From Planctomycetota bacterium (GTDB taxonomy: Bacteria; Planctomycetota; B15-G4; SIAN01): DNA of 64,000 nucleotides. Where the stretch lies: assembly GCA_031409275.1 (NCBI GenBank), contig JANNXA010000043.1:1-64000 (forward strand), in the 5' to 3' direction. The translations under genes were made by a program, and so were the position numbers. The notes under the pieces are model-generated. The model searched no databases, was not told where the DNA came from, and was given only the letters and a program-made list of their open reading frames with translations. Shown piece by piece: positions 52,588 to 64,000 of this stretch. Within the stretch, counting starts at the first letter, position 1. Every line of letters starts with the position of its first letter.

Positions 52588-53577
52588 TCAGCTGCCGACG
52601 AGTTCCGCCATGTGCTTGGCGCGCTTGCCGGCGCGCGTCTCGCCGAACTTCTCGCCGAAGGCGTTCAGCGCCTTCACGACGGCCGCATCGAGGCCGTCCT
52701 TGGCGATGCGCTTCTCGAGCTTCTCGAGCTGCTTGGCCGCTTCGCGCTCGGGAGCCATCTCCTTGGCGGTCAGCTTGCTGCTCAGCTCGGTCAGCTTCGT
52801 CGCCAGTTCGTGGCCCGCGAGCCCCTTCGCCAGCGTCGCCGCCAGCTTGTCCGCCTGCTCGAACTCGGCCGACTCGATCAGCCAATCGAGCCGCGCGAGC
52901 TTCGCCTTCGCGCGCACGGCGAGCTTGCCGGAGAGTTTGTCGGCCGCGTCCTTCTCGACGCCATCGGGGACCGCTTCGAGCGACTTGATGGCCGCCGCGA
53001 AGTTGCCCTTCTCGAAGTCCACCCACGCGGCTCGGCAGAGCGGTCCGAGATCGCTGGGGCCCTTCTTGGCGAGCTTCAACTGCTCCTTCAGCGCTTCCTC
53101 GATGGCCGTGTGCGCCGAGAGCGGGTTGTCATTGATCAGGACTTCACCGTCGTTGCTGAGCACGACGCAGTGCGGGATCCCGCCGGCGCCGGTCTCGAAC
53201 GGCGGCTCGCACGTCCAGATGGCGGCGTCGCTGAACCACTTCTTCTGCAGGACGAACTTCTCCATGTCCTTGGCCGAAGCGCCCTGCGACTCGATGAAGA
53301 GGAACTGCACGTCGTCGCCGTACTCTTCTTGCATCTTGATGGCCAGCGGCACGGCTGACCCGACACAAGGTCCTCAGCGAGTTCCCCAGAACTCCACGAC
53401 GACCGGCCGCCCTTGCAGGTCGGCCAGGCTCTTCACGCCGCGGCCGTTCACCAGTGGCTGTTGCCAAGTGTAGCTCTGTTTGGCGCCGACTTTGGCGACG
53501 CCTTGCGCCACCGCAGTGCTGCCGGCCGTCAGGACGACGGCGGCCGCTGCGAAGCGCAACGTGCTCACGAACGACAT
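52588..53577 (-). CDS. Probable secreted TlpA/thioredoxin-like selenoprotein (UxxC), read through TGA at 53374-53376
   Basis: One frame: signal peptide ...GRPVVVEFWGTR-TGA-GPCVGSAVPLAIK...GIPH; U at codon 68 of 329; SECIS-like hairpin downstream. Confidence 0.85.
53341..53360 (-). promoter_or_regulatory. Putative bacterial SECIS element
   Basis: mRNA GGUCAGC-CGUGCC-GCUGGCC: 7-bp stem (one G-U) beginning 13 nt after UGA; G at loop position 2. Confidence 0.7.
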
Positions 53578-53823
53578 GTCTTCGATCTCCCTCTGGAAAC
53601 AGGCGGAGCGGTGGGTCCACCCCGCCGCGGAACTGTGTGCACGGTTGGGACGCACGCTCGGAACCGAGGGCCCCTGTTTCATGGCCGCGGTCGGAAGTGC
53701 GTGGCGCCGGTTTACCGTTTCGTCTTCGGTACGACTGCAACGGAGATGAGGAGCGTCATTTCCAAGTCATCTGGCGTGCGGATTCGCCGCTTCGGGCGCC
53801 GCGCGTCGCTCGACTGCCGCGAC

Positions 53824-59258: not shown

Positions 59259-60404
59259 ATGATTCCCACCCGCAAGACGCGCACGATCCACATCCGTCAC
59301 CTCGCCATCGGCGGCGTCGCCCCGATCGCGGTCCAGAGCATGGCGGCCACCCGCACGCGCGACGTCGCGGCGACGATCCGCCAGGTGCAGTTGATCGCCG
59401 CGGCCGGCGCCGACCTCGTGCGCATCGCGGTCGACAACGACGCGGACGTCGAGGCGCTCGCGCTGGTCCGCAAGGCGACCACCGCGCTGCTCTCGGTCGA
59501 CCTGCAGGAGAACTGGCGCCTCGCCGAGAAGGTGGCGCCCTTCGTCGACAAGGTGCGCTACAACCCCGGCCATCTCCATCACCACGAGAAGTCGATGGCG
59601 GTGAAGGAGAAGGTGGCGTGGATCGTCGGCGTGGCGAAGCGTCACGGCCTCGCGCTGCGCATCGGCGTCAACGCGGGCTCGATCGATCCGGCGCTCGAGG
59701 CGAAGTTCCCGGGCGACCATGTCGCGGCCATCGTGCAGTCGGCGGTCGACCATTGCGCGATCGTCGATGACCTTGGCTTCCTCGACTACTGCGTCTCGAT
59801 CAAGGACAGCGATCCGCGCCTCGTCATCGACGCGAACCAGCGCTTCGCTGCCGTGCGCCCCGACGTGCCGATCCATCTGGGGGTGACCGAAGCGGGCATG
59901 CCGCCGGACGGGATCATCAAGACGCGGATCGCCTTCGAGCAGCTGCTCTCCCGCGGCATCGGCGACACGCTGCGCGTCTCCCTCACGCTGCCCTTCGACG
60001 ACAAGGGGCAGGAGATCACGGTCGGCCGCGCGCTGCTCGCCGACGTCGAGGCTGGCCGCTTCCGCTCGGTCCCGCCCAACTTCTTCAACCAGCTGAACAT
60101 CGTGAGCTGCCCCTCCTGCAGCCGCGTCGAGAACGAGAAGTTCATCGAGCTCGCGCAGGAGATCCAGCGCATGACGGCATGGGCCAAGGAGCACGCCATC
60201 ACGATCGCCGTGATGGGCTGCCGCGTGAACGGCCCCGGTGAGACCGACGACGCCGACTTGGGCCTCTGGTGCGGCCCGACCCACGTCAACCTGAAGCGCG
60301 GCGAAGAGACGGTCGGCGCCTACACCTACGAGCAGATCCTCCCGAAGGTGAAGGCGGAGGTGGAGCGGCTCGTCGTCGCGAAGGGCGGCGCGCTGCCGAA
60401 GTAG
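59259..60404 (+). CDS. ispG: 4-hydroxy-3-methylbut-2-en-1-yl diphosphate synthase
   Basis: [45 protein letters not shown] and [11 protein letters not shown]. Confidence 0.95.
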
Positions 60405-60435: not shown

Positions 60436-63363
60436 TCAGCGCGGTCGCGCGGTGATTCGGAGCGGCGCGTCGATCGGCGTGTCGCCGATCTCGACGATGA
60501 GTTCGTCGGCGACGATCAACGCGGAGCGGACGAAGAGGCGCCAGCGGCCGGGCGGGAGCTCGAGCGCGAAGCGGCGCAACGCGGGATCGTCGTCGTCGCG
60601 CGGCTCGACCGGGGTCGCGCCGCCGATCGGAGCGCTCGTTTTGCCCTCGGCAGCGAAGACGTGCACCTCGCACGGCGCATCGCGGACGTCGGGGTCGATC
60701 GAGGACTGGTCGATCTCGACCGACATCGACAAGCGGGGCGGCAGCGTGATCGGCAGCGCGTCGCCGGCCGGCCAGGCGGGGAGCTCGAGCTCGATCACGG
60801 GCGGCAGCACGAAGGTGCCCGGCGACCGTTTCGGCACGAGGCGCAGCCGCGCGACGGGCGGCAGATCGGCGTGCAGCGTGACAACACCGTCGCTATCGGT
60901 CGCCGCCTGCGCCAGCGGCTGCGCGCGCCGCCGATCCGCGGACGCGTCGAAGAGCCATACCTGGCAGCCGTCGGCGGCGGTCGTCCCGCCCGCTTCGAGG
61001 ACGCGCAGTCGCTGATCGGGCTTCGGTTCGAGGGTGATCGTGCCGAGGTCGAGATCTTGTTCGCTCGCGACGTCGACGGTGCGCGGCGCCGGCGGGCGAT
61101 AGCGGTCGGTCTCGAACCGCAGCGTCCACTCGCCGGGCGCGGCCTGCGCCGTGAAGGGCGCATCGCCGCCGCCCTTGCGCTGCCAGATGCGCGGCGAAGG
61201 CCAGCGCTCGAGCGACCATTCGGCGGTGTAGAGCAAGTCGGTCGCGATCGGTCGCCCCGTCGTCGCATCGACGAAGCGCGCCATGAGCCGGCCCGGCTTC
61301 GGCGGCTCCTCGCCGCGTGCCTGTCGCGCGAGCCCTTCGTCGAGCCGCGCTCTCCACGCGGCGCTCACCGGCGGCAGCGTCACCTCGTACGGTTCCTCGC
61401 GCGGCTCGAACACGCCGAGCTCGATCGGACTGCAGAACAGGCCGCTCGGTTCGCCCCACGGTCCGACCACCACGACGTGCCACGGCCCGCCGACCGGCAA
61501 CTGCAGAATGACTCGCTGGTCGGGCATCGCGGCGAGATCGGACTGTGCTTGCAGCAGCATCAACCAGTCGTCGCCAGCAGCGGATGCCGCCTGCGCCTCC
61601 GCGAGCGGCAGCTTGAGCGCGCCGATGGACAAGAACGCTCCCGCGGCAAGGAGGTAGCGCACCTCATCGGCGTCAGTCGGGTCGGCGATCGCCACGTCGA
61701 GCGTCAGTAGATGCTGCTGGCGCCTCGCCAGCTTCACCTCGAAGGTCGGCCGACCGCGCGGCGGGACGGTCACGAAGAGCTCGCCCGGCCGATGCTCGGC
61801 AGTGCGCACCAGCAGGCGCGTGATCTCGGCGGCATCGATGGCCACCGCGACGCCGAAGGTCGAATCGCCGGCTTCGAAGAGCTGCCCCCTGCGCCGCCGT
61901 CCGACGCGGGAGCTGGCCAGCACCTCGAGCAGCCAGCCGCTGGCGAGCCGCTCCTTCACCTGCAGCGGGGCGCCGTCAGCCTCGGTGACGCGCACGAAGA
62001 ACTGCGTCTCGCTGCGTAGCCGAACCTCGATCGGCTCGGAGCGAGCACCGGGGGCGACCTTCGGCAGCGAGACGTCGCGCCGTCGCCAATCGGGAGCAAC
62101 CACCAGCACGCTGCGATCGGCGCTCGTCGTGACCAGCTCGAAACGACCCGCGGCGTCGGTGATCGCCTCCTCATCGTCGAGAGCGAACCCCTCCTCCCAC
62201 GGTGCGAGCGCGTCGGGACCGGCGTTGCGGCGCGACAGCAGTGCGACCGGCTCGAGTCTGCGCCGCGACCAAGGCCGATCGAACGCTCGCTCGGTCAGGA
62301 AGGAGTAGCGGGCCCCCGCGGTCACCAGCGCGCCCGCGATCGGCGCGCTCGAGGCATCGTCGACGACGACACCCTCGAAGGTGCGGTGGCGCTCGAAGAC
62401 GACGTCGGGCAGCTCCGTCGTCGCGCCGTCGTTCACCAGCACGTTGCGGGTTCGCATCGTCTGCCCGCGCCGGAAGAGGAGAGCGAGTGGCTCTTCGCGG
62501 CGCGGATCCATCCGCCCGTCGTCGGTGATCCAGATCGCGCCCGCGCGCGAGCGGAGCGCATCGACCTGGTAGCGCCCCTTCGCGTCGGTCGTGGTGATCG
62601 CCTCGAAGCGGCCGCGGAGTCGCTGCGCGAGTGGCGAGTCGGGCTCGCGCCACTGGAGCTCGAGTTGAGCGGCGAGCAGCTGGCCGCCCGGCTGCGGATC
62701 GACGCCGACCTCGACGCCGGCGAGCGGCTGGCCGAGGTCGTCGACGACGCGGCCCGTCGCCGTGCCGCCGTAGCCGACCTCCATCGTGAACGACTTCTCT
62801 TGGCCGTCGGAGAGCCACGTCGCGGCGATCGTGTTGGCGTGCGGTGCGCGGCGCGGCGTCTCGAAGATCACGACGTCTTCAGGAAGCTGCTCGATCGTCA
62901 GCTCGCCCTCCTCGTCGGTCAGGCCGCAGACGAAGACGTGCGTGTTCGGCCGCTCGCTCCAGACGACCACCGGCAGGTCGGCGAGCGGCTCGCGGGTGTC
63001 GCCATCGACCACTCTGAGCTCAATGGCCCCGCGGCCGCGGTAGTGAGCTTCGGCGGGGCGCAGTGCGCCGCCGCTCGTCTCATCGCTGTCGACGGTCCGG
63101 GTACTGGCGTCGATCGAAGTACGCGCGACATCCTCGACGCGCTCCGGGGTCGCCGTCGCGGCCGCCGCCGCCGCGCTGCGATCGCCACCGCCGCGCTCCT
63201 TCGGAAGCGCAGGTCGGCGCAGCGTCACGCCACTGTTCTGCAGCGAGTGCACGACGATGCCGCCGACCGCGATCGGCACGCCGAGCCAGAGCAGCGCCCG
63301 CGGCCATCGCCGCCAACGACGCGCCTCCTCCGGCTGCTGTCGAGCGTGTCGCATCCGGTTCAC
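60436..63363 (-). CDS. Membrane-anchored carboxypeptidase-regulatory-like repeat protein
   Basis: N-terminal TM helix; repeated VVD..G.P.AG...TD..G.F/Y modules. Confidence 0.7.
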   Translation of the reverse strand: MNRMRHARQQPEEARRWRRWPRALLWLGVPIAVGGIVVHSLQNSGVTLRRPALPKERGGGDRSAAAAAATATPERVEDVARTSIDASTRTVDSDETSGGALRPAEAHYRGRGAIELRVVDGDTREPLADLPVVVWSERPNTHVFVCGLTDEEGELTIEQLPEDVVIFETPRRAPHANTIAATWLSDGQEKSFTMEVGYGGTATGRVVDDLGQPLAGVEVGVDPQPGGQLLAAQLELQWREPDSPLAQRLRGRFEAITTTDAKGRYQVDALRSRAGAIWITDDGRMDPRREEPLALLFRRGQTMRTRNVLVNDGATTELPDVVFERHRTFEGVVVDDASSAPIAGALVTAGARYSFLTERAFDRPWSRRRLEPVALLSRRNAGPDALAPWEEGFALDDEEAITDAAGRFELVTTSADRSVLVVAPDWRRRDVSLPKVAPGARSEPIEVRLRSETQFFVRVTEADGAPLQVKERLASGWLLEVLASSRVGRRRRGQLFEAGDSTFGVAVAIDAAEITRLLVRTAEHRPGELFVTVPPRGRPTFEVKLARRQQHLLTLDVAIADPTDADEVRYLLAAGAFLSIGALKLPLAEAQAASAAGDDWLMLLQAQSDLAAMPDQRVILQLPVGGPWHVVVVGPWGEPSGLFCSPIELGVFEPREEPYEVTLPPVSAAWRARLDEGLARQARGEEPPKPGRLMARFVDATTGRPIATDLLYTAEWSLERWPSPRIWQRKGGGDAPFTAQAAPGEWTLRFETDRYRPPAPRTVDVASEQDLDLGTITLEPKPDQRLRVLEAGGTTAADGCQVWLFDASADRRRAQPLAQAATDSDGVVTLHADLPPVARLRLVPKRSPGTFVLPPVIELELPAWPAGDALPITLPPRLSMSVEIDQSSIDPDVRDAPCEVHVFAAEGKTSAPIGGATPVEPRDDDDPALRRFALELPPGRWRLFVRSALIVADELIVEIGDTPIDAPLRITARPR

Positions 63364-63450
63364 CCCCGCTCGTCACCCTCGCTGCCCGGTCCTGCGGTGC
63401 CGCACCGGGTACCGTACAGCGAAGTATCGCCTCCGCCGCGGAGCAGTCCC

Positions 63451-64000
63451 ATGACGTCAATCGCGCTCCTCGCCCTTTCAGCCGTCGCGGTCCTGCAGCC
63501 GGTGGGTCACGAAGGGCCGCGGCCGCTCGCACCCGCCGACGTCGCTGCGCTGCATCGCGAGCTCCTTCCCGCGCGCGACGAACCGTGGCAGACGATCGGC
63601 TGGCGCGTCGATCTGCTCGCCGCGCGCGACGAGGCGATCCGCGCGAAACGTCCGCTCTTCCTGTGGGCGATGAACGGCCATCCGCTCGGCTGCGTCTGAA
63701 ACAACGGGGTGCTCGACCGTGAGTCGAGCTTCGCCGACCAGGACGTGATCGAGCTGCTGCAGCGCCGCTTCGTGCCGGTCGCGCTCGACGTCTGGTACGA
63801 GGAGCGGCGCCAGGACGCGGCGGGGGAGTTCTTTCGCAAGGTCGTTGCGCAGCGCGCCGGGCTGCAGCCTGGCCAGACGACGCAGGGCTTCTACGCCTTC
63901 GGGCCCGACGGAACGCTGCTCGAGGGGTGGAACCATCGTGGCGTCGATCGGCTGAAGGAGCGGCTGAAGGCGGCGCTCGAGGAGTGGAAGCCATCGGTCG
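63451..64000 (+). CDS. Probable SelN-like thioredoxin-fold selenoprotein (CxU), read through TGA at 63697-63699; runs off the window
   Basis: Signal-like N-terminus, WRVDLLAARDEA..RPLFLWAMNGHPLGCV-TGA-NNGVLDRESSFADQDVIELLQRRFVPVA...; frame stays open to the window end; SECIS-like hairpin. Confidence 0.82.
63711..63729 (+). promoter_or_regulatory. Putative bacterial SECIS element
   Basis: GCUCGAC-CGUGA-GUCGAGC: perfect 7-bp stem beginning 11 nt after UGA; G at loop position 2. Confidence 0.72.

Follow-up and report, generated by a model that had tools for sequence, protein, structure and literature searches.

A Planctomycetota gene with an in-frame TGA belongs to a large family of very probable thioredoxin-fold selenoproteins that are likely exported

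Among the closest described folds to the protein reported here are those of the Thioredoxin_7 (PF13899), DsbD-gamma, DsbH, DUF255 and UAS types (3f9u, 3ph9, 2dlx, 2lst, 3ira and 2ju5), with which it shares the thioredoxin fold. In the sections consulted of PMC2757866, the cis-proline of this fold is described as likely to bind substrate polypeptides and as possibly preventing metal binding, and peroxiredoxins carry an arginine instead. Selenoprotein N (SelN), a human myopathy protein, relays electrons to SERCA in the ER lumen (PMC8148124, consulted in part). Two catalogued families, Trx7/PDZ and TsoC, depend like the present one on recoding by a UGA and a downstream SECIS element, and Trx7/PDZ proteins also have a thioredoxin-type domain. 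The part consulted of Table 1 in PMC13188914 (119 families) contains neither the motif of the present family nor a SelN-like family, and literature searches, in the parts of the sources that they covered, returned no description of it. Table S9 of PMC4807772 names planctomycete selenoprotein candidates without sequences, of which one 'hypothetical' protein and two thioredoxins could belong to the family.

The window analysed here is a stretch of 64,000 nt, the start of contig JANNXA010000043.1 (C43) in the 5.6-Mb, 93% complete genome of Planctomycetota bacterium GCA_031409275.1. It holds, at 63451-64000 (+ strand), codons 1-183 of a putative selenoprotein gene of 411 codons, which runs past the window edge as far as a TAG whose last base is contig position 64686. 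The full product on the contig has 411 residues, with the presumed selenocysteine (Sec) at codon 83. Comparison with relatives indicates that the TGA at this codon is read as Sec, with a probability of about 0.96. The parts on either side of it very probably form one gene, for a likely exported redox enzyme of a large family absent from the selenoprotein lists checked.

About 30% of the sampled Planctomycetota carry the family (120/401, strong matches), as do Armatimonadota and other phyla. It is missing from NCBIfam and from the consulted part of the 119-family 2026 catalogue, and public protein sets carry it cut in two. Its active site is unusual in combining one Sec with no +3 resolving partner and no cis-proline, and its beta domain has no clear match among solved structures. 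Neither the protein nor its halves fit any Pfam or NCBIfam family, no NCBIfam 20.0 model matches any of 22 members, and a sequence search of the PDB gave chance carboxyl-transferase matches only.

The in-frame TGA and the hairpin behind it

A possible ribosome-binding site, read from the sequence as GGAG, lies 7 nt 5' of the start codon (63440-63443, + strand). The hydrophobic residues 1-20 (63451-63510) are predicted from hydropathy to form a signal peptide, and a crude hydropathy cut finds an N-terminal hydrophobic stretch in 75 of 80 related loci. A sequence-only reading of the window had described an ORF of 82 codons from the ATG at 63451, ending GHPLGCV-TGA and followed in frame by 100 open codons to the window edge, as a hidden selenoprotein. 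Re-reading confirms this layout. The proposal itself has gained support from a TGA column that is fixed in relatives, from conservation on both sides of it and from the Sec machinery of the host. The TGA (63697-63699) would, judging by family conservation, encode Sec83 at the start of the second helix, which spans residues 84-91 in the structure model. In an assembled RNA-library contig from a relative the TGA is unchanged beside 11 other differences, a weak hint. An Rfam scan gave nothing at gathering level, and promoter or terminator matches were absent.

Of 492 candidate stretches from a scan with one genome per species, 486 were confirmed, and the best 80 were kept. In these best 80 of the 486 loci, TGA occupies one common column without exception (80/80). 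The frame behind it stays open for 287-351 codons in 74 of them, runs off the contig in five and stops after 64 codons in one. At their true ends, family genes use TAG, TGA and TAA interchangeably, so TGA serves these genomes as an ordinary stop codon. The record titles of the best 80 are mostly Planctomycetota, then Armatimonadota; a few rows come from Obscuribacterales, Latescibacterota, Hydrogenedentota, Marinimicrobia, Chloroflexi and others, and single MAG rows among them may be mis-binned. Two of the 80 (L079 and L082) belong to the unpublished isolate genome G069, which contributes them to the counts and alignments and a single row to the selA tally; no claim hangs on it. Within the host class, 23 of 42 genomes match the family. 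The codon is TGA at 23 of the 25 class-level loci where it can be placed and TGT (Cys) at the other two (L043 and L046), a count that leaves out two contig-cut loci lacking the motif codon (L024 and L044). The deep family alignment omits L043, L045, L047 and L028.

The TGA might instead be a true stop between two adjacent genes, or specify another residue in a reassigned code. Protein databases do place the start of the downstream part at a GTG four codons later (P0006 and 40-odd pieces like it) and list it separately as hypothetical; most of 49 matches have about 300 residues and cover 73-79% of the query. A true stop would, however, break the thioredoxin fold at its active site, and ATG, GTG or TTG occurs within eight codons behind the TGA in only 39 of 77 distinct loci, which amounts to no conserved start. 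Neither upstream-only conservation nor an independent downstream start in relatives, which the sequence-only reading had named as counter-evidence, was found, both flanks being conserved. Full-length Cys forms also exist (L043, L046 and P0004, a Ser/Thr kinase fusion with Cys at the Sec column), and a reassigned code is at odds with TGA serving as an ordinary stop at the true ends of the family. This alternative is very improbable in either form, and Sec insertion is the reading adopted here.

The selenocysteine genes of the host, selA (484 bits), selB (334), selD (338) and tRNA-Sec (76 bits), all exceed curated cut-offs. Its tRNA-SeC is the sole tRNA with a TCA anticodon, and its selD carries one TGA of its own. 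When 50 of the 80 loci were taken, 45 of the 50 carrier genomes had a selA above its cut-off. A broader sample of 401 Planctomycetota genomes contains 153 with a family match at E 0.001, 120 of them strong (cut about 1e-40), and 290 with selA. selA is present in 116 of the 120 strong carriers versus 174 of the 281 others; the Fisher p of 3e-15 for this link is overstated, since kin are not independent and selA is common in the phylum. Strong matches are found in only four of 111 selA-negative genomes, which also speaks against a true stop: two of the four lack the TGA and have neither Sec nor Cys, one is a motif-less fragment, and the last, a TGA form, comes from a genome that is 67% complete. 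The selA share of 290/401 is itself high for a phylum unnamed in the text of the 2026 review.

Other recoded genes accompany this one in the host. Among ten places inspected, four other thioredoxin-like genes have an active-site TGA with a hairpin behind it. In the window, two called ORFs at 52588-53682 (- strand) make up a single TlpA/redoxin-like gene with a TGA at the junction (VVVEFWGTR-U-GPC, a UxxC motif), again with a hairpin behind. Three UxxC thioredoxin-like selenoprotein genes lie on host contigs C9, C28 and C34 (L233, L234 and L236 of genome G000); the C28 gene runs into a stretch that is MsrA-like by eye, and the C34 gene belongs to the catalogued Trx7/PDZ family. The divergent neighbour of the family gene (60436-63363, - strand) encodes 975 residues and is beta-rich and probably membrane-anchored. 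Further upstream is a gene that is ispG-like by eye (59259-60404, + strand), which seems to stand directly before the family gene in L022. In the neighbourhoods of the 80 loci, no neighbour gene is kept beyond eight closely related loci.

A hairpin of the bacterial SECIS type follows the TGA (63711-63729, + strand), with a 7-bp stem and the 5-nt loop CGUGA, whose first base is 18 nt past the TGA. The sequence-only reading had remarked on a perfect hairpin here, and so it is, with support that comes from relatives and not from folding energy. The energy is -17.7 kcal/mol and the geometry fits the consensus rules in section 5 of PMC13188914; set against shuffled sequences, the energy is not beyond chance (z -1.66, 13/200, for 46 nt; -0.48 and +0.33 for longer pieces). 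Across 22 distinct sequences, 86.4% of the stem cells pair versus 76.4 +/- 2.1% after shuffling, a value that none of 500 shuffles equals, and slid controls pair at 30-44%. Double changes number 14 versus 5.5 in shuffles, none of 500 reaching 14, in a test favoured by the use of a structure taken from the host sequence and of related kin.

Codon choice in the 77 distinct loci is also biased at this place. Arginine at U+7, in the loop, is encoded by CGC in 3 of 70 cases versus 1028 of 2112 (49%) elsewhere in the same genes, and at U+8 the pairing G is the last base of 57 of 64 four-fold codons, versus 36% elsewhere in these genes. A simple SECIS-like scan passes 64 of the 77 loci versus 517 of 2849 control places. 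On this comparative evidence, the hairpin is under selection at the RNA level.

Active site and proposed chemistry

The product is divided into a thioredoxin-fold domain of the thioredoxin_7/DsbD-gamma/UAS type (residues 43-182; 63577-63996, + strand) and a C-terminal beta-sheet domain (residues 188-411), whose coding part lies past the window edge, on this contig and strand. The predicted model, built with Cys in place of Sec, contains a thioredoxin domain that presents Sec at the nucleophilic position (UxxG, without a cis-proline). A thioredoxin-like fold had been proposed from the sequence, and here the predicted model and the fold matches agree.

The active-site loop, placed by the family alignment, is W-A-M-N-G-H-P-L-G-C-V-U-N-N-G (residues 72-86; 63664-63708). 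WxMNGHP was the search pattern of the family scan and is invariant by construction; the U, the Asn at +2 and the Gly at +3 lie outside this pattern and occur in all 77 distinct loci. The residue directly before the Sec is Thr, Val or Ser in 77/77. Two residues before it, Cys81 (63691-63693) is a candidate resolving thiol and non-essential, with Cys in 67 of the 77 and Ser, Ala, Gly or Thr in the others. The CxU spacing suggested earlier has to be given up: the Sec is in register with the first Cys of WCxxC, which makes U-x-x-G the structural motif, and the family can do without the Cys at -2.

Gln145-Gly146 (63883-63888) replace the cis-proline loop of thioredoxins, with Gln in 107 of the 108 aligned family rows and Gly in all 108; SelN and CxxC thioredoxins have Pro at the Gln145 position of the alignment. 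The conserved polar residues are His77, Asn75, Asn85, Arg90 and Gln145; in the beta domain, Arg259, His264 and Asp267 are conserved. Two candidate assignments were rejected. The PF13899 model yields no match for the window protein, and family members score far below its cut-off (best E 0.0029, in 4 of 22 members). A dithiol oxidoreductase (CxxC or UxxC with a cis-proline) is at variance with Gly at +3 in 77/77 loci and Gln at the cis-proline site.

Redox catalysis at the Sec is quite probable from the sequence evidence. The combination of a single selenol, no +3 partner and a polar residue in place of the cis-proline points away from classical dithiol exchange on proteins, so a periplasmic selenol peroxidase or small-molecule reductase is favoured over a protein-disulfide reductase, an assignment that we hold at slightly less than even odds. 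SelB with Sec-tRNA would very probably bind the hairpin, 18 nt past the UGA, and so insert Sec83, and the signal peptide would probably export the protein. In the model, Sec83 is predicted to sit where thioredoxins keep their attacking Cys, with Gly in place of the +3 resolving Cys and Gln in place of the cis-proline. The selenolate might then attack a substrate that is held and activated by the conserved polar residues and perhaps selected with help from the beta domain. The oxidised Sec might be re-reduced through Cys81, where it is present, or by another exported CxxC or UxxC thioredoxin.

It is also conceivable, if rather unlikely, that the Sec together with the nearby His and Cys binds a metal or metalloid, or senses redox state, with no turnover of substrate. 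Loss of the cis-proline is thought to allow metal binding (PMC2757866, in the sections consulted), and 107 of 108 family rows have His77, the His falling within the search pattern for most of them. Fusions of the kind found in sensor modules occur: in P0004 a Ser/Thr kinase and then a membrane helix precede the family domain, and in P0002 the family domain stands ahead of one that is SecD-like by eye. Paralogues (L237-L241) have neither Sec nor Cys at the site, so a non-redox use of the fold is possible, and in G302 and G395 such a paralogue is found within a few kb of a Sec form on the same contig. Most members, however, stand alone, and no metal-resistance or transport neighbours are conserved. 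Most uncharacterised selenoproteins are, moreover, thought to be redox proteins in the part consulted of PMC13188914 (section 7). Redox catalysis at the Sec is the preferred account.

Relation to selenoprotein N

The sequence-only reading had seen a likeness to SelN and proposed a bacterial SelN-like family. The likeness is real and in register around the Sec, but the family assignment does not stand, because a SelN profile finds a different host gene. The eukaryotic SelN set was built from a short SelN motif, which led to 45 metagenome loci and from these to seven full-length frames. The seven-sequence profile, searched at E up to 10, finds only a gene on contig C23 of the host, and the window gene was rejected as a SelN orthologue. 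The C23 gene (L174; 24982-25821, - strand) matches at E 9e-50 and has one TGA. It encodes a SelN core and then a thioredoxin domain with DESC-U-GSG, and a hairpin lies behind the TGA.

Strong SelN matches (E under 1e-13) occur in 12 of the 401 Planctomycetota genomes, 11 of them with a TGA inside the match. A profile of the bacterial orthologues matches 462 representatives at E 0.001, not all of them checked as bacterial, and 110 of the best 150 of these 462 end in DESC or DQSC, that is, they are cut at the TGA. True SelN orthologues with an in-frame TGA occur in bacteria, and eukaryotic SelN is nested among them in both trees. Such bacterial orthologues may already be known, and a doctoral thesis reportedly deals with one from Poribacteria. 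Bacterial SelN goes unmentioned in the consulted parts of PMC12839072 and PMC8148124 and is absent from those of PMC13326102 and PMC7539508, and a term search of PMC12013277 found none.

Two further groups of sequences were seen on the way. Bacterial SelN-like domains stand behind sigma-70 domains in P0089 and P0100. The weaker SelN-profile matches (L186-L203) are further uncatalogued, exported thioredoxin_7-like TGA families with a long loop and no +3 Cys, for example, LDDGL-U-SAG, DAGKT-U-NNA and LDDEFC-U-ANA, and in most of them a comparable hairpin lies some 19-34 nt from the TGA.

Both SelN and the family place a single Sec where helix 2 begins, in a domain of the thioredoxin_7 type located outside the cytoplasm (by predicted export for the family), and both have a second, beta-rich domain of similar size. 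They also have in common 5-6 inserted residues ahead of the Sec, a Gly at +3 and an Arg at +7. HHalign pairs the family with eukaryotic SelN at 16% with the Sec in register, or at 33-65%, and the thioredoxin domains of the family and of bacterial SelN at 97.5% (E 5.5e-12); the bacterial SelN thioredoxin profile reaches E 0.18 against the window gene. Thioredoxin-domain scores are 75-78 for bacterial SelN versus 69-73 for generic CxxC thioredoxin_7 proteins and 84-86 for another uncatalogued TGA family. Special SelN kinship on the strength of this domain was rejected, generic thioredoxin_7 nearly equalling bacterial SelN and another TGA family scoring higher.

Tree tests do not decide between a placement with SelN and one with the CxxC thioredoxins. 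Bacterial and eukaryotic SelN form a branch supported at 99/92 in the thioredoxin-domain tree, and this branch excludes the family. A group of long-loop single-Sec domains has support of 82/90 when the active-site loop is left out, and it then includes the Trx7/PDZ row; its support of 96 in the first tree comes from a quick tree that retained the loop. Three loci served as UxxC controls. AU tests reject neither a position as sister to SelN (p-AU 0.33) nor one with the CxxC thioredoxins (p-AU 0.48).

The beta domain matches the bacterial SelN core weakly in HHalign (48-62%, E about 1e-4, score 33-35), and the match comes from another subfamily than that of the window protein. The null reaches 22.5 as the best of 50 shuffled sets and 19-20 for a DUF6263 set, with a maximum of 25 in a smaller first run. 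For the subfamily of the window protein (score 18-20) and for eukaryotic SelN taken alone, the match does not rise above the null, and HMMER cross-scores reach only 10.8 bits. A special link with SelN rests, in sum, on the shared long active-site loop and this weak beta-domain match.

A tentative proposal, held well below even odds, is that the family is a domain-swapped cousin of SelN, in which a long-loop single-Sec thioredoxin domain and the beta domain of the SelN core are joined in reversed order. The family and the bacterial SelN orthologues would then form one unrecognised exported superfamily of Planctomycetota from which eukaryotic SelN arose. If this is true, soluble bacterial models of the human myopathy protein would be at hand, and a beta-domain link that held up would make the origin and chemistry of SELENON testable in small bacterial proteins.

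The family might also work in the manner of SelN and use its single selenol to reduce or isomerise cysteines of envelope or membrane proteins that dock on the beta domain, though we think this unlikely. The features shared around the Sec and the HHalign results, strong for the thioredoxin domain and weak for the beta domains, are in keeping with it, and the periplasm corresponds to the ER lumen in which SelN acts. Against it are the cis-proline of SelN (11/11), where the family has Gln, the closeness of the generic thioredoxin_7 scores to those of bacterial SelN, and a beta match that is at null level for the protein's own subfamily, with low HMMER cross-scores. A selenol peroxidase or small-molecule reductase is still the favoured function.

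Comparison with known families

SelN has a Cys directly before the Sec (SCUG; PMC12839072, in the part consulted), whereas the family has it at -2 (67/77; GCVUN here). The cis-proline is present in 11 of 11 SelN rows, and Gln takes its place in 107 of 108 family rows. The beta core precedes the thioredoxin domain in SelN; in the family the beta domain follows it. Animal SelN has a type II membrane anchor and an EF-hand, and the window protein has neither: only 82 residues precede the Sec, which leaves no room for them, and Pfam scans found no EF-hand.

Catalogued bacterial selenoproteins were compared directly. The Trx7/PDZ test (NF041199, HMM over 300 bits plus a PDZ domain) is passed by another host gene (C34:79085-80257, 342 bits) and not by the window gene. 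TsoC (NF045708) has no match in the host at E up to 1, and none of five genomes exceeds its cut-off, although, going by its name (NEPxGxxU), its PxGxxU spacing resembles that of the family.

Peroxiredoxins and glutathione peroxidases serve as a working model only: like the family, they combine the thioredoxin fold with one reactive chalcogen. The reactive residue of peroxiredoxins stands at the second CxxC position, whereas that of the family stands at the first. Both groups are absent among the 50 fold matches listed, and the family does not have PxxxTxxC. A polar residue replaces the cis-proline in peroxiredoxins, as it does in the family (PMC2757866, in the sections consulted). Compared with the Thioredoxin_7 group, whose fold it shares, the family dispenses with CxxC and cis-proline and has a longer active-site loop and an extra beta domain.
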